From positions 1-64,000 of the forward strand of contig JBHLQH010000013.1 of the NCBI GenBank assembly GCA_048884965.1: DNA of 64,000 bases, given 5' to 3'. The number at the start of each line of letters is the position of its first letter. Position 1 is the stretch's first letter. Below, in pieces: positions 12,854 through 26,540 of the stretch. A program made the position numbers and the translations under genes. The notes under the pieces were generated by a model. It was not told the DNA's origin, did not search any database, and was given only the letters and a program-made list of their open reading frames with translations. The DNA is from Candidatus Thorarchaeota archaeon (GTDB lineage: Archaea; Asgardarchaeota; Thorarchaeia; Thorarchaeales; Thorarchaeaceae).

Positions 12854-13015
12854 TCAGACTTTGAGATCGAATGGACCTCTACTATCCTCAACAGATTCTT
12901 GAGGTGTCTTCGTCCTCCTTCGTTGTTCATATCCTTCGACTGTCATTGTATTCTTGCAATAGTGGCACGCTACAGGTTTGCCGTTCCTCAAATCTTCAAC
13001 TTCAACAGGATTGGA
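12854..13015 (-). pseudogene. Start-less C-terminal fragment of a probable zinc-ribbon protein
   Basis: Alternative frame reads SNPVEVEDLRNGKPVACHYCKNTMTVEGYEQRRRTKTPQESVEDSRGPFDLKV*: one CxxC knuckle, preceded by an in-frame TAA. Confidence 0.4.
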
Positions 13016-13551
13016 TTAGTAGGATCAGATATGTCAATAATCGCCAATCCAGAAGGACCATCTGCAATATATGCATAATTACCATCCACACATATATCAT
13101 GAGAAGTTCCAGTAGTATATCTATAGACAGGCGCGGATGGATTTGTGGGGTCTGTTATGTCGATGATTGCTACACCTCCCCCAAGCTGAGTAACATATGC
13201 ATAGTCACCAACAACAACTACATCTTGAGCAAAGTATGCTGTTTCCTCGAGAACTGATGCTTTTGGATCTGTTGGATCAGAAACATCACTAATCTCCAAA
13301 CCTGAACTTGTAGCGACATATGCATAATCGCCTTCAACGAATATTCCATATGTAATCCCATATGTTTCCCCAGAGTATTCAGTAATTTGATCCACATGAA
13401 TTTCTTCTCTTGCAGTTGCGAAATATGGTTGATTCAATAGAAGAACTGTAGACAAGATCAGGATCAATAGAGCAAACCCGATTTTTCTTGCCATCATGTC
13501 CAATCCATCTCCGATATTTGATGTGAGAGGAGGGGTCTCCCCCCTCACCAC
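12988..13551 (-). pseudogene. LVIVD-repeat surface protein, apparently truncated after about 3 repeats
   Basis: Signal peptide (MARKIGFALLIL...; true start probably ~13498) and GDYAYVA..GL.I.D[IV]SDP.NP repeats; ends abruptly at NPILLKLKI*. Confidence 0.65.
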
Positions 13552-13668: not shown

Positions 13669-13730
13669 GTATATATATTGTTAAAATTCTCATCACTAGA
13701 CATATTAGAAATGCAAAGCTGAGTGTGTAT

Positions 13731-14072
13731 ATGCCAAGGAAGAAGAAAGAAACAGGCGAAGAACCAAAGGCACGAGTGAGTCTCCGTGAACAGATTCTAG
13801 GAGAATATTCCTCAGAGGAATTCTCAACCAGAAGTCGTGGTACACATGTCATGACACGTTTGAGTGATGACATCGTTGAAGCAATTGATGCGTTGGTAGA
13901 ACTTGGTATATTCAAGAGTCGTTCAGAGGCAGTTGCTGCCTTTGTAGAGAGATCTATTCTCTCTAAAGCCGATCTGTATAGTAAGCTCAAGAAGCAAGCT
14001 AAACACATTGGAGCAATGCGTGACGAAGCGATGGAAGTTGCACTAGAAGCATTCCAGCAAACTGATAGTTAG
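13731..14072 (+). CDS. Ribbon-helix-helix (CopG/MetJ-like) regulator, paralog 1
   Basis: HVMTRLSDDIVEAIDALVELGIFKSRSEAV RHH signature; ATG at 13731. Confidence 0.85.
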   Translation: MPRKKKETGEEPKARVSLREQILGEYSSEEFSTRSRGTHVMTRLSDDIVEAIDALVELGIFKSRSEAVAAFVERSILSKADLYSKLKKQAKHIGAMRDEAMEVALEAFQQTDS

Positions 14073-14143
14073 TTCACATGAATCCGGAAGCCATTCTGCA
14101 GATTTTTCTAAGCAGAGCATCTAGTTCAAAAGGCTTATATCAG

Positions 14144-14168
14144 ATGTCAGTATATTACATGTCAGACA
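14144..14168. promoter_or_regulatory. Operator upstream of RHH paralog 2
   Basis: ATGTCA-gta-TATTACATGTCAGACA, the same arrangement as at 13607; follows TATA-like CTTATAT. Confidence 0.55.
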
Positions 14169-14245
14169 ATAATTAATGATTAACTAAGATGCGGAATTGA
14201 ATAAGCCGAGGAATGCAAGATTTGATCTAGGATGAAGTGGATGTC

Positions 14246-14587
14246 ATGGTGAGAAAGAAAACCCGATCTGATGTTGATGAAAAAACTCGGGTACGATTTC
14301 GAGATCAGATACTAGGCGACTACGACTCGGACGATTTCTCTACTCGTATACGCAATAACCACATTATGACGCGACTGAGTGATGATATCCTAGAGATTAT
14401 TGATGCATTGGTTGAACTTGGTATTTTCAAGAGCCGCTCAGAGGCGGCTGCAGCATACATAGAAACATCAATCATCTCAAAAGCAGATATCTATCTGAAA
14501 CTGAAACAGCAGGCCAAAAATATTGGTCTAATGCGAGAAGAAGCTATGGAATTAGCATTTGATATTTTTCAGGAAACTGAGGATTAA
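14246..14587 (+). CDS. Ribbon-helix-helix regulator, paralog 2 (tandem duplicate)
   Basis: HIMTRLSDDILEIIDALVELGIFKSRSEAA; 73/113 identical to paralog 1 by manual ungapped count. Confidence 0.85.
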   Translation: MVRKKTRSDVDEKTRVRFRDQILGDYDSDDFSTRIRNNHIMTRLSDDILEIIDALVELGIFKSRSEAAAAYIETSIISKADIYLKLKQQAKNIGLMREEAMELAFDIFQETED

Positions 14588-14695: not shown

Positions 14696-16171
14696 GTGGA
14701 ACCCATCGGAACAATTACAGCATATTTCTCATTGGTAGAAGATGATACACAAGTCATTCTTGAATCAACGATGGAAGAAGCTCAGAACTTCCGTGAGTTC
14801 GTCGATATCTTGTGCGCATCAGTTCTAGATGAGAAGCCATCGGACGAGCTAATTTTCTTTGCGGTACACTTCGCGGCACTTCTTTTTGATTTCAACTTGA
14901 TAAACAGAATTGCAGACAAATATAGTAGTTTGAGTATCATTCGTCCGAACCTTTTCTATGGAAGTGCTTTCCAAGGAAAACATGAAGATTTCAGGAAAGT
15001 CAGAGAAGCCGCTGATAATGTGATGGCAACAGGTCCACCAGATTGGCTCAAGCTTGAGATGTACATAGTGAAGCTAGAGGCAGAGAATGAGGAATATCCG
15101 AAGGAATTGTATGATTCATCGACTCATGATGCGATAGAAAATATGATCAAAAGAAAACCTGAATTTGGTTTCTACAAATCACGAGTTCTTGATTCTTTGA
15201 GTATTAGAGCAATCAGAGATGGTGATACAGATCAAGCCCTAGAATTGAATCAAAGAGCTATTCAAAATGCAGAAGAACACAACGATTTCAATCGCCTCGC
15301 TCATCTTTTACGAACAAGAGCAAGCATTCTCCAAAGCTCCAATCGAGAAGTATCTCACGAACTGCTACGTCGTTCCCATGTTCTCCTCAAATCCATGGGG
15401 GATAAAGGAGGTATGGGTGACGTATTATTCCTACTAAGCAAGTTAGAATCAATACAAGGGAATTATGATAGAGCGATTGAATACAACCTTGAATGTATAG
15501 GGATCTGGCAGTCCATTGGTATGCCTACTGGTATGTTCGGACTCACTCTCTCGACTCTCTATAATCTCATAGGAGACCAGAATACAGCACTTGAATGGGC
15601 AAAAATGGCTGAGTCTGAATTGCTAAGCAAACCAATGTTACAACCTAGAGCAGTTCTTAATCAGGCATGGGCTCTGGCGGAATCAGGCAAAATCTTGAAA
15701 GCTCGTCAATTGGTGGATAGCATACGCGATTCTATCTTAAAATCAGGACTAGAATCCAATCTTGGATGGCTGTATCTCATAGATAGTATCATCGAACCAT
15801 TGGAAGGCAATTATTATTCAGCGGCTAATCATGTTGAAGAATCGTTGGATATCTACGAGCGAGCGAGAGGTTATTTCAGCTATTACATATGCCTCCACCA
15901 AAGGGCGAAGATAGAGGTCTCTAGCATAGATCTGGAAACGACATTGACAAAAACGGAACAGCCAGGAACTTGGTTATTGCTCCTCGAGGAAAAAGCCCGC
16001 AAGGAAAATCTTCAAGGATTACTCGCCCAGGCACTTATACTGCAAGTGGAATTCTTCAATAAGGTTGGTAACGAATTCAAAGCGGAATCGGTATTGGAAG
16101 AACTGAAGGACCTAATGAAAGAAGGGGAGTTTTCTTTCTTAGAGAGTAGAGTGAAAGAATTGGAGCGATGA
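14696..16171 (+). CDS. Tetratricopeptide-repeat/alpha-solenoid protein
   Basis: Helical repeats such as GDTDQALELNQRAI, GNYDRAIEYNLECI and GNYYSAANHVEESL; GGAGG upstream. Confidence 0.7.
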   Translation: MEPIGTITAYFSLVEDDTQVILESTMEEAQNFREFVDILCASVLDEKPSDELIFFAVHFAALLFDFNLINRIADKYSSLSIIRPNLFYGSAFQGKHEDFRKVREAADNVMATGPPDWLKLEMYIVKLEAENEEYPKELYDSSTHDAIENMIKRKPEFGFYKSRVLDSLSIRAIRDGDTDQALELNQRAIQNAEEHNDFNRLAHLLRTRASILQSSNREVSHELLRRSHVLLKSMGDKGGMGDVLFLLSKLESIQGNYDRAIEYNLECIGIWQSIGMPTGMFGLTLSTLYNLIGDQNTALEWAKMAESELLSKPMLQPRAVLNQAWALAESGKILKARQLVDSIRDSILKSGLESNLGWLYLIDSIIEPLEGNYYSAANHVEESLDIYERARGYFSYYICLHQRAKIEVSSIDLETTLTKTEQPGTWLLLLEEKARKENLQGLLAQALILQVEFFNKVGNEFKAESVLEELKDLMKEGEFSFLESRVKELER

Positions 16172-16194
16172 ATTGAGTAAGAATCACGACCAAT

Positions 16195-18903
16195 CTACTT
16201 CAGCTTCTTCGACGATGATTCACTCGGGATTCTTCGGGGATAATTCAAGTAAGGTTCGTGGACAGGAATAGGTCGTCCATCTGGAAGGTCAGTTGGATGA
16301 TTCCAGAGAGGTTTTGGGGGAAGTACAATCCCTTTATCAGGCAAATCTGTAGGATGGTTCCATTCGGGCTCAGGAATTGGCAACTTATCTGGAAGATCAG
16401 TAGGATGATTCCATAATGGCTCATTTATCGGAATTGGATTACCATCAGGCAAATCGGTCGGGTGATTCCAGTCTGGTGATAACAACGGAATTGGATCACC
16501 ATCAGGCAAATCAGTAGGATGATTCCATTCAGGCTCGGTAACCGGGATAGGTTGTCCATCTGGAAGGTCTGTCGGATGGTTCCATAATGGTTCAGGCGGT
16601 GGCTCGGGTGAACCGTCTGGGAGATCGGTCGGGTGATTCCAGCAAGGCTCAGGACTAGGTTCGACACCAGAATCCGGAAGATCAGTAGGATGATTCCATT
16701 CGATCTCTTGGATTGGCTCCTTGTAGGGTTCTATCCTGACATCCGCCGATTCAGATGTCGAAGCCAGAGACATAGTAAGTTCATACTGGTCCCTCCGTAA
16801 GCGCTTCATGACTTGGCCAACTATTATTGAAACAACTGCTACTGCTGCTATCACAAGTGCAGATACTACCGTGTAATAGACATCCTGCATACTTGGCTCT
16901 GGATTTGTATTAGCGGGTTGACTGATGTAGAGGGAATATCCAAAGATGAAAGCATCGTAACCTCCCAAATAGTCCGGAAGATCCTCAGAACGCGTATTTC
17001 CACAGATGTAGGTGTTATTTGCCTCATCAACTACCATTGCACTTACAATATCATCATTTAATCCACCCAGACATGAGCAGCAAATAATTGAACTCAAATT
17101 CATCTTTAGGACGAAAGCATCATATCCACCATGATGTGTTCCTTCAGCCATAGGAAAATCAGTAGATGACGTCGTCCCAGCAATGAAGATTTGACCTTGG
17201 GAATCTACTGAGATGCTTTCTGCATAGTCAATGGAATCTCCACCGATGAATGTGCTGCTTATCAAAGTGTCACCAAACTCTGATATTACGCTTACAAAGC
17301 AATCTCGAGAACCACTTAGTGTGTCATCAATAGCATTTAGTATGGGATAATCAGCTGATTCCGTGTAGCCTGTGACATATGCAACACCATCAGCATCAAC
17401 TGCGACTGAATGCCCCTCATCTCTACTATCACTCCCCAAATAGGTCGAGTAGACTACATCCCATGAACTGTCAATCTTGATGACGAAAGCATCTGTGCCA
17501 TCCGAATATGAGCTATAGAGGGGATTAATCAGAGAGAGCCCACCTTCGGTGTGTCCAGTGATGACAAAATCACCGTTCTGACATACAGCAAGGTCTTTGA
17601 CTCTATCAATTCCGCCCCCTCCGATGAAACTGCTGAATAAGAATTCATCCCCTGCAGCTGAAAGACATAGAATGAATCCATCAAAAAGATCGTAACTCTC
17701 ACTATCTATTGGATTGATAAGAGGTATATTTTCCGAGCTTGTCCAGCCACCAACAAAGACTTTACCGTCAGAATCGATATCTATTGAAGTGCCACATTCT
17801 CCATTGGTTCCGCCGTAGTAAGTTGAATACTCTATGCCATTTCCGGTTGAGTTAAGCTTGAGGATGAAGACATCACCTTGGTGGTCCTGATATTCACCTC
17901 TGAGAATAGTCAAGTTCTCTGATACAGAGTACAATGGATTCTCTGTAGGAAAGTCGTTGCTTTTGGTATTCCCTGTTAGATAGACATTTCCCTCTGCATC
18001 AATAGCTATATCCTCTGCAACATCATCTGGCTCAGATAGTAGGAGATTGGTATAATCTCCACCTATACAAGTCGAGTAGATTATTGAGCCATCCGCGTTC
18101 ATCTTTGTGACGAAAGCATCCATTCCACCTTGATAGGATTGAAACTCATTGCGCAGTGGAAACTCTGGTGAATATGTAGACCCAGCTATGTAGAGATTTC
18201 CTTCTTGATCACGAGTCATACATTGTGCCCTGTCTGATTCAGACCCGCCTAGGCATATCGATAATAGTGAGCGATCATCTATTTGAGAGATTCTGTATCT
18301 ATGCGAGTCATCAATAGGCAGATCAAAATGGAATCTAATCCCAGAGCTACCAGGAACTAGGTTCGATTCATCTATTCTAATATCATCCCAGAAGGTATCA
18401 ATTTCTTCAGCACTCAAATCTTCTTTGAGCTCAAATGTAAAATCGATACCATCCTCGACATAACAAACTGCGAGATTTACACCTTTTGTGAAATCTCTGT
18501 ATTCTAACGATTGATAACAGCTCACATCCGTGTAGGTTCCTCGAGAACCAAGGAAGTAATGACATCGATAGTCTTGTTCTGAATGACCAACTATTACAAC
18601 GTCATCTGAGGTTTCGAAGGACAAGAGATCAGATTTTTGAGAGGAGTCACTCCAAAAAGAGACACTATTTGAGTCCAATGTAATGTATCCGTCGGGAACA
18701 CGACCATAGTATTCTATGTCCGAGTTATTGATCTGTCCCTGATTCTTGATGAAATATCCATGGGATAGACTTCGAGATTCTGGTCCCTCTTCAGTGTATT
18801 TTCCTTCTGAAGTAAGAACTAGCAGAGGTGCAAGTAGTGCTGCAATCAGTACAATGGAGAGTATCATTCTGAAGCTTCTCGAATGCAATCTTGAATATCT
18901 CAT
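16195..18903 (-). CDS. SBBP beta-propeller membrane protein with C-terminal WNHPTDLPD repeat tail
   Basis: Signal peptide, FIKNQGQ, multiple STY.GG/YxTGxTxS.DFP repeats, TM (VYYTVVSALVIAAVAVVSIIVGQV) followed by KRLRR, then 8 repeats. Confidence 0.85.
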   Translation of the reverse strand: MRYSRLHSRSFRMILSIVLIAALLAPLLVLTSEGKYTEEGPESRSLSHGYFIKNQGQINNSDIEYYGRVPDGYITLDSNSVSFWSDSSQKSDLLSFETSDDVVIVGHSEQDYRCHYFLGSRGTYTDVSCYQSLEYRDFTKGVNLAVCYVEDGIDFTFELKEDLSAEEIDTFWDDIRIDESNLVPGSSGIRFHFDLPIDDSHRYRISQIDDRSLLSICLGGSESDRAQCMTRDQEGNLYIAGSTYSPEFPLRNEFQSYQGGMDAFVTKMNADGSIIYSTCIGGDYTNLLLSEPDDVAEDIAIDAEGNVYLTGNTKSNDFPTENPLYSVSENLTILRGEYQDHQGDVFILKLNSTGNGIEYSTYYGGTNGECGTSIDIDSDGKVFVGGWTSSENIPLINPIDSESYDLFDGFILCLSAAGDEFLFSSFIGGGGIDRVKDLAVCQNGDFVITGHTEGGLSLINPLYSSYSDGTDAFVIKIDSSWDVVYSTYLGSDSRDEGHSVAVDADGVAYVTGYTESADYPILNAIDDTLSGSRDCFVSVISEFGDTLISSTFIGGDSIDYAESISVDSQGQIFIAGTTSSTDFPMAEGTHHGGYDAFVLKMNLSSIICCSCLGGLNDDIVSAMVVDEANNTYICGNTRSEDLPDYLGGYDAFIFGYSLYISQPANTNPEPSMQDVYYTVVSALVIAAVAVVSIIVGQVMKRLRRDQYELTMSLASTSESADVRIEPYKEPIQEIEWNHPTDLPDSGVEPSPEPCWNHPTDLPDGSPEPPPEPLWNHPTDLPDGQPIPVTEPEWNHPTDLPDGDPIPLLSPDWNHPTDLPDGNPIPINEPLWNHPTDLPDKLPIPEPEWNHPTDLPDKGIVLPPKPLWNHPTDLPDGRPIPVHEPYLNYPRRIPSESSSKKLK
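16279..16698 (-). repeat. Eight coding repeats of WNHPTDLPD with Pro-rich spacers (period ~17-20 aa)
   Basis: The 9-aa core is identical in all 8 copies while codons differ (e.g. TGG AAT CAT CCT ACT GAT CTT CCG GAT vs TGG AAC CAT CCG ACA GAC CTT CCA GAT). Confidence 0.95.
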
Positions 18904-21242
18904 TCCTCTTTCAAACCTCCTAGTTCATCAAGCTCTAATTCCAATCTCCTTCTAGCTTCGAGTAAGCGAAGTATCTCCTTTGGTGGTGGTAGGTCTATGA
19001 GTCTTTCAAGCTCAATCAGCACCTCAAGTTCTACTGAGTCAAGTGAAGATCGGTCTTTTGTCAAGAAATCAACAGTGATCTCTTGGATGTCTGCGGGTTC
19101 TGCTCCCGAATTTACAAGGGAGAGCTTCACACTGGATTCTAAGACCTCCTCAATTTCTTCTAGTCTAGTTACATCTTGCTCCAATAAGCGAAAGTGCTCA
19201 ACGTTGACTTCTAACGATGCAACATCCGGTTTCAGCAACTCCTTAGCAACTAACTCAGTCGGCGGCAAGTCGCCGGTTAGTTCCTCGAATGCCTTCAACG
19301 TTTCCTCCTTGTCATCAAGTATCGGTTCTTCTTTTTTATGAGTGAAAGTATCTCTAAATCGATATGCAGCATATAGACCAATGACAGTGAATGATACAAG
19401 TATGATGAGCGGAATATTATAGTGAATTACTTCGCGAAGTGAAACATTATCATCATCCGGAGGATATCCATTGGCTACTTCCCAACCATCTGGATATGTA
19501 TCAAAATCAGAATCTTGGTTTCGGGGATCAGTTCCTATTGTGAACTCAAAGTAAGTTGTTAATCCATCATTATCATGATCCAGTAAAGCATCATTGGGAT
19601 TATTCGGATCTAACTCGTTTGCGACTTCATATCCATCAGGAAGCAAATCTGAATCAGTGTCATTATTTGCACGATCAGTTTCAAGTATGTTTTCCTGACA
19701 TTCAGCTAAGAGATCATTATCCATATCACCCCAATCATAGAGAATTGAGAGGAAGGCATCCATTGCTCCACCCATGAATTCGCTTTGATGTGAGTTTGCC
19801 GTAACTGGAAAGTCCTCGGCATTCGTCATCCCACAAAGGATTATGTTACTAGATGCATCGAGTGCGATTCCTTCCGGGTCGTCATTGCTATTGCCACCCA
19901 GATATGAGCTATACAACAATCTGTTTGTGCTCAAGTCAAGCTTGGAGATGAAACAGTCAATCGAGAATTCAACATTCAACTCACCATCAAGTTCCTCATC
20001 AAAGGCATTCGCCATTGGAAAGTCATCGGAGTTCGTGCCTCCGACAATATAGACACATCCCCAAGTGTCTATAGCAAGGCCTCTTGGAGAATCGTCATCG
20101 AATCCACCAAGAAAAGATGAATAGAGAACATCTGAACCGTTATCATTCAGCTTGAGAATAAAACAATCACTCTCTCCGCCTCGTTCAGGTTGCAAACCTC
20201 CAATCATAGGAAAATCTCTGGATCGTGTCCATCCAGTGATATAACATGACCCCTCAGCATCTATCACAGAATAGGAACACTCGTCACTGGAGATTCCTCC
20301 AATTAGAGTGCTGAATTGAATCTCACTGCCATCGGACGCAAGATTGATCAGAAACCCATCACGTGTTCCGTTCAAAGTCCTATCAAAAGCAAATTGCGAG
20401 GTATAGAAATCGGGAGAGCTGGTCCATCCAGTGATGAATATCGAGCTGTCTTGCCCAATCATAAGGTCATTCCCACATTCGCCAAGGTTTCCCCCTAAAT
20501 ATGAAGAGAATAGCAACTCATCTCCATCTGGCCCAATCATGACTATGAAAGCATCTTCAGTTCCATTCAGAGTGTTGTCGATGCTCTCCTCCAAGGGAAA
20601 ATTGGGAGATTCTGTCCTACCTGTCAAGTAGACATTACCACTAGAGTCAACACGTAGGCAGCTGACCTCATCATCTTCATTACCTCCGATGTACGTTGTA
20701 TAGATTATTTCATTATCAGTAGGATTGAATTTGATGACAAAAATATCATCTCCACCATTATGTGATTCATCATACGCTCCAGAAGTGGCAAGATTGCTTG
20801 AGTTGGTCATTCCTGTGATGTAGACATTATCCGAGTCATCCACTTCCATGTATATGGGAAAATCTTTCCCGTCCCCACCTAGATAAGTGCAATAGAGCAT
20901 TTGGGATCCATCTGAGCTTAACTTCAAAAGAACGATATCAGACTCACCACCTTGATAGGAGTCATGATATGCATCTATTGTACCCCATGATTCAGTATCA
21001 GTGTATATTATAACGTAGATTGAACCATCAGGTCCAACACAGGTATGTGCCGCACGGTCATCGCCAGAGTAATAACTATCACCACCATAATAGGAAGAGA
21101 AAATAAGAGAGTCTTCGATGGATATCTGCTGATTCTTGAAATTCGAAGATGTATAAATAGAGCTAGATGATACACAACTCACGAGTCCAATGCAAAGAAG
21201 TGAGAGAAAAGTCATCCCTACTACGACATCCCGCTTCTTCAA
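18900..21242 (-). CDS. SBBP beta-propeller membrane protein with DxDxDG (TSP3-like, Ca-binding) repeats and an acidic helical tail
   Basis: SBBP repeats, DTDSDLLPDGYE, DHDNDGL and DSDFDTYPDGWE, then a TM and a ~150-aa tail; its stop overlaps the start of 16195-18903. Confidence 0.85.
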   Translation of the reverse strand: MKKRDVVVGMTFLSLLCIGLVSCVSSSSIYTSSNFKNQQISIEDSLIFSSYYGGDSYYSGDDRAAHTCVGPDGSIYVIIYTDTESWGTIDAYHDSYQGGESDIVLLKLSSDGSQMLYCTYLGGDGKDFPIYMEVDDSDNVYITGMTNSSNLATSGAYDESHNGGDDIFVIKFNPTDNEIIYTTYIGGNEDDEVSCLRVDSSGNVYLTGRTESPNFPLEESIDNTLNGTEDAFIVMIGPDGDELLFSSYLGGNLGECGNDLMIGQDSSIFITGWTSSPDFYTSQFAFDRTLNGTRDGFLINLASDGSEIQFSTLIGGISSDECSYSVIDAEGSCYITGWTRSRDFPMIGGLQPERGGESDCFILKLNDNGSDVLYSSFLGGFDDDSPRGLAIDTWGCVYIVGGTNSDDFPMANAFDEELDGELNVEFSIDCFISKLDLSTNRLLYSSYLGGNSNDDPEGIALDASSNIILCGMTNAEDFPVTANSHQSEFMGGAMDAFLSILYDWGDMDNDLLAECQENILETDRANNDTDSDLLPDGYEVANELDPNNPNDALLDHDNDGLTTYFEFTIGTDPRNQDSDFDTYPDGWEVANGYPPDDDNVSLREVIHYNIPLIILVSFTVIGLYAAYRFRDTFTHKKEEPILDDKEETLKAFEELTGDLPPTELVAKELLKPDVASLEVNVEHFRLLEQDVTRLEEIEEVLESSVKLSLVNSGAEPADIQEITVDFLTKDRSSLDSVELEVLIELERLIDLPPPKEILRLLEARRRLELELDELGGLKEE

Positions 21243-21614
21243 CCAGTTCGCCTCTACAAACTAACCTTAGCTCCTCCTCTTCTATTCGCCATATTCCTAT
21301 ATAAATAAGAGTTAGAAGCGACAAAGAGAACTCCGCATTCTCAAGAAATTAACAATTCATGGAAGCCCGTTTTCTTAAATAATGAAATTAAATGACAAAG
21401 GTTTATACCTCACCGTTCTCATATAGTTGGTAGCTTCGCAAAAACGCAAAGATATCCGATAGGCAGTGTAGTAATTGTAAATTTCATGATACGTACTATA
21501 TATTGCTCTATTCGATTCTGTGAAGACCGATTGAATTTGACCCCTATTCGATCTTGAAAATACATGGGATGCACTGGACCTGAAGCGACATTTCGCGTGG
21601 AGTGTGTGGAGAGA

Positions 21615-23486
21615 ATGAGAAGATCGAATACGGGAATTAGGAGGAGACTCGTTACATTCGTTTTAATCTACTGCATCATATGTACAGGTACCATATCATC
21701 AGTAGAAGGACAGAACGACTCAGCTAGGAATGACTGGACTGGACCGAACCTAGATAGGATTCGCTATACACTGTTCAATGGAAGCTATCCAGGTGCTGGT
21801 GGAGATGCGCATAGAGCTGAAGTGCTAGCTTTGATTGATGGTGAGATTGATGCAATAACAACTACAGTGCATTACACAGAGGATATGGTAACAATTCTGG
21901 AAACAGCCAATATCGAGCTTGTCCAGTTCTATCGCACTGCTGCCTTTGACCTGCGGTTCAACTGTGAATACTGGCCACTAAATATCACAGAGTTTCGAAG
22001 GGCAATTCATTATGCAGTTGACAAAGAAACTCTATGTTCATTGCAAGATATGTTACCTCAAGATAGTCAGATTATCCCACCACATCCATTTTCTATTGAA
22101 AATGAAATGGAACATCACTATTATCAACCTGAGATTGCAGAAGGAGCAGCTCTCCTTGATAGCATTGAATTCATTGATATTGATCATGATGGAGTTCGAG
22201 AAGCACCAAATGGTGAAGAACTTGCTCCAATCGAGGTCAAGTTCATGCGAATACCAGCAGCAGGACCACTGGCGGAGCAAGCAGCTGACGCTGTGGTTGA
22301 AGCATTGCACAATCTGAATATCTCCGCTTTCTCAAGCAGAGTGTACGATACTAGTGAGGCATGGCAAGAGTATTCGAGCGGCAACTATATGATGTACACA
22401 GGGTGGACCCATTCGTGGGAGTTCAACCTCGAGTCATGGATCAGAGATTGGGGACCATCGAATCTTAAGAAATGGTCAAATGCGACATTCAATGCTTATG
22501 CAGATGTAGCACGCTCTTCTATGGACTTCAATGAAATAACCAACGCAGTGAAGCAGATGCAACACATCATGATAGAAGAATGTCCGAATATTGTTCTAAT
22601 GCAAATACCCTTGTTTACTGCCTATCGATCGGATTGTCATGAGAACTTCACTGAGCATCCATGTGGAGGATCATATACATTCTTCACCGGGCTATCTGCA
22701 TGTAATATTACAGTGAACTCAACAGGCGGTTGCCTAAATTTTGGAATGTCATCCGATATCATCGAGGTGCCAACCCACGTTAGTCCTAATCCTAGTGCCT
22801 ATTGGTGGCTTTCTGATGAGAACTTGATGGGGATGATGCATGATTCACTTTGCCAGATAGATCCTAACCTGAATGTAATTGATTGGCTACTTGAGGATGT
22901 TACCATCGAGTGCCATGATGATGATTCGACTATACCAGAAGGACATACGCGAATCTCCCTTGATATAGTTGATAATGCAAAATGGAGTGATGGAAATCCT
23001 ATAATCATGAATGATGTGTCATTCAGCATCAATTGGTATAGAGAGAACATGCCCTACACAAGTGACACACTCAGCAATTTGATCTATTGCATGGCAAAAA
23101 CACCAGACCTCTTAGTAATGGAATTTAACACTCAAACGTTCTGGAATTGGTATAGGGTATGTTTCCTTCCGATTCTGCCAAGCCATGCTACAAGTCAGTA
23201 TGCTTTGGATCCAATTGAGAAAAAAATGAGCCCTGTCGTATTTGATGAAAGTCTAATTGTATCTGGCCCATTCATGGCATCTGAGCAGGTGAAAGGCAAG
23301 TATTTCGAAATAGTGCAAAACCCATACTATTGGAAGAATCCAAAGAATATTCCGCAAGAAGTGAATGATACAAACAATACTACGCCACCTCCTGTTGATC
23401 TCACATTGTCACTTACTGTAGGGGCGATTGGAGCAGCATCAATAATCCTTGTTGGAGGTATAGTAATTACAAGGAAATATAATTGA
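21615..23486 (+). CDS. ABC transporter substrate-binding protein, family 5 (peptide/nickel), permuted domain order, C-terminal TM anchor
   Basis: GEIDA, FRRAIHYAVDK, WSDGNP..NDVSFS, SGPF and NPYYW; start taken at ATG 21615 behind GGAG. Confidence 0.85.
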   Translation: MRRSNTGIRRRLVTFVLIYCIICTGTISSVEGQNDSARNDWTGPNLDRIRYTLFNGSYPGAGGDAHRAEVLALIDGEIDAITTTVHYTEDMVTILETANIELVQFYRTAAFDLRFNCEYWPLNITEFRRAIHYAVDKETLCSLQDMLPQDSQIIPPHPFSIENEMEHHYYQPEIAEGAALLDSIEFIDIDHDGVREAPNGEELAPIEVKFMRIPAAGPLAEQAADAVVEALHNLNISAFSSRVYDTSEAWQEYSSGNYMMYTGWTHSWEFNLESWIRDWGPSNLKKWSNATFNAYADVARSSMDFNEITNAVKQMQHIMIEECPNIVLMQIPLFTAYRSDCHENFTEHPCGGSYTFFTGLSACNITVNSTGGCLNFGMSSDIIEVPTHVSPNPSAYWWLSDENLMGMMHDSLCQIDPNLNVIDWLLEDVTIECHDDDSTIPEGHTRISLDIVDNAKWSDGNPIIMNDVSFSINWYRENMPYTSDTLSNLIYCMAKTPDLLVMEFNTQTFWNWYRVCFLPILPSHATSQYALDPIEKKMSPVVFDESLIVSGPFMASEQVKGKYFEIVQNPYYWKNPKNIPQEVNDTNNTTPPPVDLTLSLTVGAIGAASIILVGGIVITRKYN

Positions 23487-23579: not shown

Positions 23580-25097
23580 ATGATAACTAGACAGAAAATA
23601 TCTCGTGATGAGATATTCATCTTGGGTTTCTTTATCCTAGTGTTAGCAAGTGTATTCTATCTTATGATCACAGAAACCGTCTGGATTATCGTGCAAACTG
23701 AAGTAATGGCGGTCTGGATAATCTTCGCTTCAGTATCTACTGCTACTCTGGGAGGTGTGGTCTTAACATATTCCTTCGTTGCACACAGACAAGTTCCAGA
23801 GCTTAGGTATCTCGTCATTGGATTGTTAGCATTAGATATGGTGTTTATTTCACTATCATTTCTTTTCACTCATCCTGCATCTGAGTTATGGATTCCCCAA
23901 TTGGCAGACAGACAGAGGAATCGATCAATCATTATTGCTTTTGGATTGGCATTGATACCAAGTGTTCTTTTTGGGGCGTTCAAAGGGGAGGTTCCAATCC
24001 TTGGAGAGAAGCTATGGATCAATTCACTTTGGAGTGGTGTTGTCATCCCTCTGGTCGTCTTGTGGTTCACATTCAATCCAGAACCAGTAATCGTTAGCAC
24101 AGATACATCTGATGCAGGAGGTATCTTTAATGCAACACCAATTGGTCTTATTATCATACTCGCTGTGATGAGTGCATTCCTGCTATCGTTTGCTCGCTAT
24201 TCTATCGAGTGGCTTCGTTCCCGGAATCGAATAACTCTCGGTTCAAGTTTGTCCCTCTTCCTTTGGATTCTCGCCCTGATTCTACTTGGAATCCTCGATG
24301 ATCCTTTCCTGATCCTAGAGATTGTCTGGTATGGACTGGTGGGTTGTGGTTTCTTGATTATTGCGACTACGATGATAATCACATCAATCCTAGAACCCCA
24401 TAAGGCACTCAATGAGCTCGTTGAAGAGAGAACGAAAAAACTTGAAAGCTCTGAAATGGAGAGCTCCATGTATCTAGATCTCTGGTCTCACAAGATTGGC
24501 AACATCCTTCAAGGTATGATGACCTACATCGAGATAATATCGGAGATAGCTCGGAATGAAGGAATTACTGAGCCAATTGAGAAAGCAAAAGACCTCGGTA
24601 AAGAAGCCAACCTCATCAATAGACAAGTGAATAATCTTGCTGCTATCAAGCAAACGCTTGACCAACCACTTCGCAAGGTCAATGTTCGGGAAGCATTGGA
24701 ATCCATCTCACCCTACAACCTTGAGAGAGAAACAGCATTCCATCTCTCAAATGACGTTGATCCTGAATTCGAAATCATTGCGGATGAGCTTCTAATTCAA
24801 CTATTCTACAGTCTATTTGTATATGCGATTAAGCGAACCACACATGAGCAATTGACAATGGATGTGCAATCTCTGATAGAAGACCACGAAAGGCAGGTTG
24901 TGATACACTGCTCGGATCGATCAATACTCCCAGATGTAACTAGTTATCTTAGCAATAGGATGGACACAACATCGAAGCATTTTGGTTTAGAACTATTCAC
25001 TATGAAATTGCTACTCCATCGCTATGATGCAAAGTCGAGATACATTGAGTCAGTTGATGATAATAGTGGCAACCTAGTCTTGTCGTTCAAAATGTGA
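23580..25097 (+). CDS. Multi-TM sensor histidine-kinase-like protein with degenerate ATPase domain
   Basis: About 8 TM helices, LVEERT coiled linker and H-box YLDLWSHKIGNILQG; N and G boxes degenerate. Confidence 0.7.
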   Translation: MITRQKISRDEIFILGFFILVLASVFYLMITETVWIIVQTEVMAVWIIFASVSTATLGGVVLTYSFVAHRQVPELRYLVIGLLALDMVFISLSFLFTHPASELWIPQLADRQRNRSIIIAFGLALIPSVLFGAFKGEVPILGEKLWINSLWSGVVIPLVVLWFTFNPEPVIVSTDTSDAGGIFNATPIGLIIILAVMSAFLLSFARYSIEWLRSRNRITLGSSLSLFLWILALILLGILDDPFLILEIVWYGLVGCGFLIIATTMIITSILEPHKALNELVEERTKKLESSEMESSMYLDLWSHKIGNILQGMMTYIEIISEIARNEGITEPIEKAKDLGKEANLINRQVNNLAAIKQTLDQPLRKVNVREALESISPYNLERETAFHLSNDVDPEFEIIADELLIQLFYSLFVYAIKRTTHEQLTMDVQSLIEDHERQVVIHCSDRSILPDVTSYLSNRMDTTSKHFGLELFTMKLLLHRYDAKSRYIESVDDNSGNLVLSFKM

Positions 25098-25178
25098 TCG
25101 AGTCATTCATGATGTATAGCTTGTTTCCGAACCTGCTGGTTTAGGGTAGTTGATATTATACATAAGGAAGGTAATCTC

Positions 25179-25556
25179 GTGGAGAAGACTATGCATAGTA
25201 GTTTGAAAGGAAAATTCATTGAAGCGACCACACAGTTCCAGCAATCGCCGCACTCAGAGGGATGTGCAAGTGTGATATATCGTACACCATGGGTACGTAT
25301 ACTTATTGAGCCCCACAAAGAAGATGACACTTATTGCATTGAAGTAGAAGTGTTCCTTTCAGATCAAGATGGTGTTGATGAATCGGACTCGATGGTTCTT
25401 TTTGATAGGCTAGTCCGGCATGTCGATTATCTCCGCTGTCTACGTGAGCATGGTTTTGAACTGTGCATCATAGGTTCGGGATGCATTCTATGTGCCACAA
25501 AAGTGATTGAAGGAACACCGCAGGACAATCTATTTAGTGCGCTATTACCACCATAG
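25179..25556 (+). CDS. Hypothetical protein
   Basis: 125-codon ORF with globular composition, co-oriented between real genes. Confidence 0.6.
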   Translation: MEKTMHSSLKGKFIEATTQFQQSPHSEGCASVIYRTPWVRILIEPHKEDDTYCIEVEVFLSDQDGVDESDSMVLFDRLVRHVDYLRCLREHGFELCIIGSGCILCATKVIEGTPQDNLFSALLPP

Positions 25557-25610
25557 TGTTGACACAAATCAAAAATAGCTAGTTTGTCTAGCGAACAAGT
25601 TTGATCCTAT

Positions 25611-26540
25611 TTGATGGTGGACATATTGGATCTATTGGATAAGAGCATCCTACTCGCACTTGATACTAATTGTAGGTTGTCCTATCAAGCATTGGCGGAG
25701 AGATTAGGTATTACTGCAACAGCTGTACGAAAACGATTGGACAAGTTGATTGAAGAGCATGTCATTGAAGAGTTCGATGTTATCCTTAGACCTGCAATGA
25801 TAGAATCTGAATACCTAATCGCCCTAATCTATACTGACGGATCTGAGAACGAAGAAGAATTCATACCAATAATAGGCACTAATGTGAATGTGATCCAAGC
25901 TGGGCAGATTGCCACAAGTAATGGAAGATTGTATTTTGTGCATTGTGAGTATACCTGTACAGAGAGTTTACAGAACCTGGGCACATTCTTCAGAAAACTA
26001 GAATCAGTCACCAATATTGAGTTGCACACGATAATCACGACGCGAGGTTCGAAATTCGATATCAAGAAGATGCACTTGAGAGTCCTGCAATGTCTACTAG
26101 AGGATGCGAGGATGCAGATAAGTGATATCTCTCAGCGTACTGGGATGACAGCTAGAAGGGTAAGTAGGGCCATCCAAGAGATGCAAGAGAGCGAAGCCTT
26201 CTGGTTTGCTACCAGGTGGAACTTGAGCCTTGGCAATAACACCGAGTTCTATCTTAAAGTTCATTATGATGAGCAAATTTCACGAAGAGATGAAATTGAA
26301 GAATGGTTCCAAAAAGAGTATCCATTGGAGTATTGGTACTCCTTCTACTCTGCTCTAGAGCCAACTCTTTTCGCCAAATTTGTAACAGGTCATTTTCGTG
26401 AATCTGAGTCTATCTCCAAGGCAACGAAGAAAGCATCCTTCTGTTGCTCTGTCGATGTGCTTCTTTCCTATCCTGTTGTTAAGTTTCCTCGTATAGGACA
26501 TGCAAGAATCAAAGAGATGATTGAAGAAAGTGGGATCTGA
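25611..26540 (+). CDS. Lrp/AsnC family regulator with duplicated wHTH
   Basis: LDLLDKSIL..L..NCRLSYQALAERLGITATAVRKRL and a second LLEDARMQISDISQRTG unit. Confidence 0.85.
   Translation: MMVDILDLLDKSILLALDTNCRLSYQALAERLGITATAVRKRLDKLIEEHVIEEFDVILRPAMIESEYLIALIYTDGSENEEEFIPIIGTNVNVIQAGQIATSNGRLYFVHCEYTCTESLQNLGTFFRKLESVTNIELHTIITTRGSKFDIKKMHLRVLQCLLEDARMQISDISQRTGMTARRVSRAIQEMQESEAFWFATRWNLSLGNNTEFYLKVHYDEQISRRDEIEEWFQKEYPLEYWYSFYSALEPTLFAKFVTGHFRESESISKATKKASFCCSVDVLLSYPVVKFPRIGHARIKEMIEESGI

Follow-up and report, generated by a model that had tools for sequence, protein, structure and literature searches.

The window, that is, the whole stretch of 64,000 nucleotides analysed here (contig JBHLQH010000013.1 of assembly GCA_048884965.1), comes from a genome of Candidatus Thorarchaeota. 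It contains two coupled genes for surface beta-propeller proteins, one of which carries an array of a nine-residue motif in the tail behind its membrane helix. The features of the locus are the following.

14696..16171, plus strand: 491-residue soluble protein with a TPR superhelix, convergent with the array gene at a distance of 23 bases, candidate partner
16195..18903, minus strand: array gene, encoding a predicted 902-residue single-pass surface protein with a signal or anchor helix, DUF7948, an SBBP propeller, a transmembrane helix and a 206-residue cytoplasmic tail
16225..16248, minus strand: decayed ninth unit of the array, which keeps N, P and P
16279..16698, minus strand: eight WNHPTDLPD cores with proline-rich spacers of 8-10 residues (residues 736-875)
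16762..16815, minus strand: basic juxtamembrane helix of RRxxYxxxM type (residues 697-714), the sole ordered part of the tail model
16816..16872, minus strand: C-terminal transmembrane helix (residues 678-696), with no Lys or Arg before it and four after it
16924..18267, minus strand: SBBP beta-propeller region (approximately residues 213-660)
18388..18753, minus strand: DUF7948 match (residues 51-172)
18900..21242, minus strand: upstream gene, encoding a 780-residue surface protein with an SBBP propeller, TSP3-like acidic repeats, a transmembrane helix and a tail
19275..19307, minus strand: conserved short helix-like segment of the upstream tail, behind the membrane (residues 646-656), found in 12 of 12 aligned rows
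21564..23486, plus strand: family-5 solute-binding protein, divergent, in the cassette at nine of the ten distinct loci whose upstream side is on the contig

Beyond the solute-binding gene, positions 23580-26540 encode a 505-residue sensor-like protein with multiple transmembrane helices and no Pfam match, a 125-residue protein and a double AsnC/HTH regulator, and the first two of these genes stand in the same order in the locus L034. On the other side, two tandem ribbon-helix-helix genes (13725-14587), 66% identical to each other, lie directly upstream of the TPR gene. Another paralogue of this type is convergent to a TPR paralogue (contig C1, 219906-221716), and such genes near the TPR gene are not conserved at the other cassette loci. 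An LVIVD-repeat gene for just 187 residues (12988-13551) appears to have been cut short after a few repeats. The search against Rfam gave no match within the window.

Both surface proteins belong to the SBBP family (PF06739), with 118.6 and 99.8 bits against a Pfam cut-off of 20.5, and the genome encodes at least nine SBBP-type paralogues. Their ectodomains belong with the SBBP/DUF7948 surface propellers, and no solved homologue was found by sequence; the motif is found in no other protein of the genome, WNHPTDLPD being absent elsewhere in all six frames of its 4.09 Mb. The transmembrane helix at residues 678-696 and the KRLRR that follows it are as described in the first-pass annotation. The array protein also has a hydrophobic N-terminal helix, so that it presents an N-terminal signal or anchor, one C-terminal transmembrane helix and basic residues behind it. 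When seven array proteins were scanned for hydropathy, their last helix proved to be preceded by 0-1 and followed by 4-6 Lys or Arg residues, while 5-7 N-glycosylation sequons lie before it and 0-1 after it. By these simple rules, the distribution indicates that the propeller faces outside and the tail inside, which agrees with the cytoplasmic position first proposed for the tail. With regard to its structure, the tail is 22% proline, and its AlphaFold2 model (from an 11-row alignment; mean pLDDT 56, pTM 0.16) shows a single confident helix, beside the membrane, and no secondary structure elsewhere, in line with the disorder that had been suggested. The Tyr and Met of the RRxxYxxxM helix are invariant in seven aligned orthologues.

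The eight WNHPTDLPD copies follow one another with a period of 19 residues, once 17, and are identical in amino acids, as had been reported together with the decayed ninth unit. All eight 27-base cores are distinct in DNA and every difference is synonymous; the region presents a short conserved motif repeated in a segment modelled as disordered, as in other arrays of short linear motifs. It is not an assembly artefact, since 15631-17021 is spanned without any difference by a contig assembled from another sample of that study. In sample X3, a single contig of low depth differs by a synonymous (Leu) change in the core at 16621, which may be an error. In nine arrays, the synonymous difference between cores ranges from 0.46 to 0.92, near saturation in most, with an amino-acid change of approximately zero (the small non-zero value for the cores of the window's array results from averaging paths between Leu codons), and the flanks, taken as four codons on each side of the core, change at up to 0.64. 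In the nearest orthologue, whose copies can be matched one to one because the spacing pattern is the same, the eight pairs of cores do not differ in a single amino acid, and the spacers are identical at 43 of 68 positions. If the 24 species-variable positions changed as fast as the spacers, they would all have stayed the same with a chance of about 2e-5, so even the lineage-specific letters are maintained. Saturated synonymous sites, identical cores and diverging spacers bear out the view that selection acts on the peptide, and recent slippage or ongoing gene conversion of the cores is rejected given the saturation.

The stop codon of the upstream gene overlaps the start of the array gene by four bases (ATGA), as first noted, and the two genes follow one another in this order in all 11 loci where this can be assessed, so that the coupling of the two propeller genes is conserved. 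The upstream product had been described as a second SBBP propeller with DxDxDG repeats; the propeller stands, and the protein gives a weak TSP3_bac match under Pfam's cut-off. The two DLP words pointed out in its tail do exist but are not conserved, and they have been rejected as a motif shared with the array, since only the closest of 11 orthologues keeps one of them. The upstream tail occurs in a long and a short form: an additional, helical-looking domain of approximately 100 residues (18900-19270 in the window), with no Pfam match, is present in five loci and lacking in the others.

Fourteen distinct orthologous loci have been found, all with the core array, one of them only as a tail-end fragment. 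The named relatives are Ca. Thorarchaeota, a few of them under the broader name Promethearchaeota, which bears out the Asgard archaeon that had been taken as the likely host. The orthologues have 3-14 core copies, and across the 14 loci the motif reads W-N-[HYQ]-P-[TSG]-[DE]-x-P-D, with WNHPTDLPD at two loci and WNHPTDQPD, WNHPTDHPD, WNQPTDHPD, WNYPTDHPD, WNHPSDNPD, WNHPTDRPD and WNYPGESPD as further variants. Trp1, Asn2, Pro4, Pro8 and an acidic residue at position 6 are universal, and position 9 is Asp with a single Asn. The pattern WNHPxDLP proposed earlier therefore needs correction: the array is conserved in the orthologues, but what stays invariant is W-N-x-P-x-[DE]-x-P-[DN], since His3 and Leu7 differ between species. 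Positions 3, 5 and 7 vary among species and are nearly fixed inside each gene, while W, N, P and P are retained between lineages about two changes per site apart in the ectodomain. It seems that in each lineage a single variant gave rise to a re-expanded array and was retained from then on, which points to a surface reading positions 3, 5 and 7. Two members of one 90% cluster, L025 and P0018, differ solely in copy number (three versus five), through strain variation or assembly collapse.

A relaxed core pattern matched these genes alone, in five of 400 Asgard genomes. A DNA scan of 185,579 genomes for the exact motif returned one match, attributable to chance, in rRNA-like Bacteroidetes DNA where the frame is short; a profile search of 1.84 billion representatives returned four orthologues, the remainder being FNIP or unrelated repeats, and a metagenome scan added one orthologue. 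Searches of the tail in Pfam, the ESM Atlas and PDB sequences gave nothing usable, with no entry covering the tail, and no description of the motif or the tail was found in the literature searched, so the statement that it matches no described repeat family holds in these databases. The motif array is real, selected and hitherto undescribed.

Orthologues of the array protein, the upstream protein and the full-length TPR protein co-occur in the same five of 86 genomes of the family, from three genera; in a sixth genome the TPR gene runs off the contig, and one further genome matches the upstream gene more weakly. The convergent TPR gene, to which attention had been drawn as a neighbour, lies behind the array gene in all 14 loci, while the outer flanks change. 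The system is a rare accessory cassette of Thorarchaeota and no pan-Asgard trait. The TPR proteins of the cassette form one clade (support 100/100), and the tree of the ectodomain, with about two changes per site between deep lineages, recovers the same groups.

The TPR protein has a TPR_12 match at the cut-off and a confident model (pLDDT 92.7), which is closest to MalT domain III, LGN, Rap, APPBP2 and NprR (Z 20-23). Most of these proteins bind peptides in a concave groove. At 11-15% identity, the likeness to LGN, Rap and MalT seen in the model is one of fold only. Residues specific to the cassette clade, that is, fixed in it and rare in paralogues, number 18 on the helices that we assigned to the groove and seven on the outer helices, a borderline excess (p 0.055) for which the paralogue clades offer no comparable counterpart; among the few lineages available, no residue of the TPR protein was seen to change along with the motif variant. 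Paralogues of the TPR gene in many other Thorarchaeota genomes are convergent to genes of C25 (gingipain-like) surface proteases, which have merely a few basic residues after the membrane. The tail-to-tail layout is thus a habit of the TPR family that needs no tail ligand, and synteny is no proof of binding. Furthermore, the solute-binding and upstream genes are linked to the array gene almost as tightly as the TPR gene.

The pairing with proteases recurs at L019:3965-7687 and L054-L073, where members of this TPR family of approximately 490 residues stand tail-to-tail with membrane-anchored C25 peptidases of 900-1280 residues. Such loci often lie near a double AsnC-type regulator and a 125-residue protein, and this grouping of TPR, C25 and AsnC genes may represent an undescribed peptide-sensing regulatory set. 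At L071:7614-15827 (G000 contig C12), two tandem proteins of 1300 residues that resemble NTPase plus WD40 (STAND-like) proteins precede a TPR paralogue.

The orthologues also point to the origin of the repeat. One of them has a complete unit, WNHPTDHPDGCRCPLC, at the end of its tail, plus a second Cys module, and the sequence HPxGCxCxxC closes the tail in 11 of the 14 loci, being missing in three that include the window's protein. On this comparison of sequences, the repeat derives from the front half of a longer, zinc-knuckle-like His/Cys unit ending in HPxGCxCxxC. The orthologue at L034:6907-9711 (P0021) has two terminal His/Cys modules, one of them continuous with a perfect core. HPxGCxCxxC is no widespread Asgard module: across 400 Asgard genomes, what else matched was either a short, off-frame ORF or a tRNA-guanine transglycosylase-like protein, the latter being the only other long reading frame with an HPxxCxCxxC-type match. 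The CxCxxC of tRNA-guanine transglycosylase binds zinc. The terminal module of most orthologues has the same Cys spacing, although it is a free-standing knuckle of ten residues after His-Pro and is absent from the window's protein, and it probably binds zinc as well.

These observations bear on a first alternative, in which the tail would be a metal-binding or metal-sensing strip whose repeats, as halves of a His/Cys zinc site, use His and Asp as ligands, either by themselves or together with the terminal module. The orthologue with the complete unit and a second module, the Cys-rich tail ends of the 11 loci, the HxxxH pair of the commonest core and the zinc site of the transglycosylase all lend it some credit. 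However, His3 is replaced by Tyr or Gln in three loci, His7 by Leu, Gln, Arg, Asn or Ser elsewhere, and one lineage lacks both. The invariant residues are Trp, Asn, Pro and Pro, and three loci without the Cys module, the window's among them, keep the array under selection. The repeats hence need no terminal module, the window's tail does not offer the four ligands of a His/Cys zinc knuckle, and His/Asp metal binding, which had been offered as an alternative function, fails as a general one since neither His is universal; as an account of the array it is unlikely.

A second alternative holds that the cores would bind one another, by stacking or in a condensate, and so cluster the receptor, a structural role with no separate partner. 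The copies within a gene are identical at the very positions that vary among species, as in-register self-association would favour, and weak matches relate the core to a part of the FNIP repeat (PF05725), whose short-form units contain FNHPIDLPDG, near the window's core. FNIP repeats form a folded LRR-like solenoid, whereas in the orthologues their hydrophobic positions are occupied by T/S/G and H/Q/R/N/S and the hydrophobic strand is missing; the FNIP profile matched none of seven tails at E 10, against 1.5e-50 for a true FNIP protein, so that the likeness, judged by these profiles, is superficial. Moreover, the period varies from 17 to 23 within arrays, and the proline-rich tail is modelled without a fold. 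Self-association is quite improbable.

In a third alternative, the tail would be a precursor from which proteases release identical short peptides, with the TPR protein as their target in the manner of RRNPP signalling. RRNPP systems combine a receptor of 250-500 residues with TPRs, an adjacent peptide gene and a propeptide of 10-100 residues, the peptide being secreted, matured and re-imported (PMC10075063). As in Rap-Phr, NprR and AimR, a Rap/NprR-like TPR protein, here of 491 residues with TPR_12 at the cut-off, adjoins a gene with repeated short peptides in lineage-specific variants, 23 bases away though convergent. Identical cores, X-Pro spacers and the neighbouring TPR protein of RRNPP size and fold and family-5 solute-binding protein would fit, and Rap-Phr systems include pheromones duplicated in tandem (PMC11343458). 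Unlike in RRNPP systems, the host is archaeal, and the cores belong to a 902-residue membrane protein, on what is predicted to be its cytoplasmic side, instead of to a small propeptide that is secreted, matured and re-imported (PMC10075063); there is neither a conserved cleavage site nor a protease gene in the cassette, which leaves this reading very unlikely. Finally, neutral slippage debris in a disordered tail, to which the labile copy number and the near-identical units and assembly gaps in the arrays of some orthologues might point, is refuted by the saturated synonymous sites, the invariant cores with diverging spacers and the conservation across deep lineages, and has next to no probability.

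The explanation considered best, with a probability somewhat above even, is that the inside-facing tail serves as a multivalent docking array for a cytoplasmic partner. The disordered tail would present 3-14 equivalent motifs, each W-N-x-P-x-D-x-P-D core could bind one site on a soluble partner, rigid X-Pro spacers would keep the cores apart, and copy number would set avidity or the number of partners recruited. The three versus five copies within one 90% cluster disfavour a fixed fold. The two coupled propeller proteins may act as a pair, and the tail may relay an outside signal or anchor what the paired propellers bind outside. With regard to the partner, the weight given to docking is shared about equally between the neighbouring TPR protein, which is the likeliest named candidate, and some host protein whose gene lies elsewhere. 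A prediction of the complex between the TPR protein and three repeats scored 0.00 twice and, being run without controls, is no evidence either way.

The docking array is proposed to work like the motif arrays of two eukaryotic systems. In epsin, DPW and NPF motifs are arrayed in a proline-rich disordered region and gain avidity from their copy number. The Thorarchaeota tail likewise repeats a motif of aromatic, Pro and Asp residues in proline-rich disorder, but the motif sequence differs and the array is carried by the membrane protein itself. Profiles for EH, alpha-adaptin appendage, UEV and WW domains had no match in the genome, with controls equally silent, and the MIT profile had one match below the cut-off. 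The core does not fit a MIM2-type pattern, on our reading, and its invariant positions do not fit the tankyrase (RxxPDG), PTAP, YPxL, LIR or WW-domain motifs. The second system is that of calsyntenin-1 and SKIP, whose W-acidic motifs, in which Trp is flanked by Asp or Glu (EWD), are bound by the TPR domain of kinesin light chain (PMC6214655). There, too, a membrane protein repeats short motifs centred on Trp in its disordered cytoplasmic region, and their reading by a concave TPR groove is the working model proposed for the Thorarchaeota tail. Unlike in calsyntenin-1 and SKIP, the copies number 3-14 instead of two, and the archaeal TPR protein is a candidate partner similar in fold only. The cores are not W-acidic in sequence, as Asn follows Trp in all intact copies; the residue before Trp is E, D, Q, L, K, C, N or T.

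A bolder form of the docking model, which must be considered doubtful, is that the tail is a peptide ligand, tethered to the membrane and present in many copies, for the TPR protein with its RRNPP/LGN-like fold, the two forming an archaeal receptor-adaptor pair in which every lineage would have fixed a motif variant of its own in all copies, matched to its TPR protein; the tail would hold several TPR molecules at the membrane and free or cluster them when the paired propellers sense something outside. If true, this would amount to eukaryote-style multivalent-motif signalling evolved within Thorarchaeota from a zinc-knuckle unit. Receptor tails that recruit through repeated short motifs are a eukaryotic hallmark, of which no Asgard case was found in the literature searched. 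What limits the importance of the array is its presence in just five of the 400 Asgard genomes searched, all from one Thorarchaeota family, which makes it a lineage-specific invention and not an ancestor of a eukaryotic system. The family lends itself to a small and cheap test, since the peptide has nine residues, three of its positions vary naturally and the candidate partner is soluble and confidently modelled. It also illustrates one origin of such motifs, in which half of a Cys/His module is expanded in tandem.
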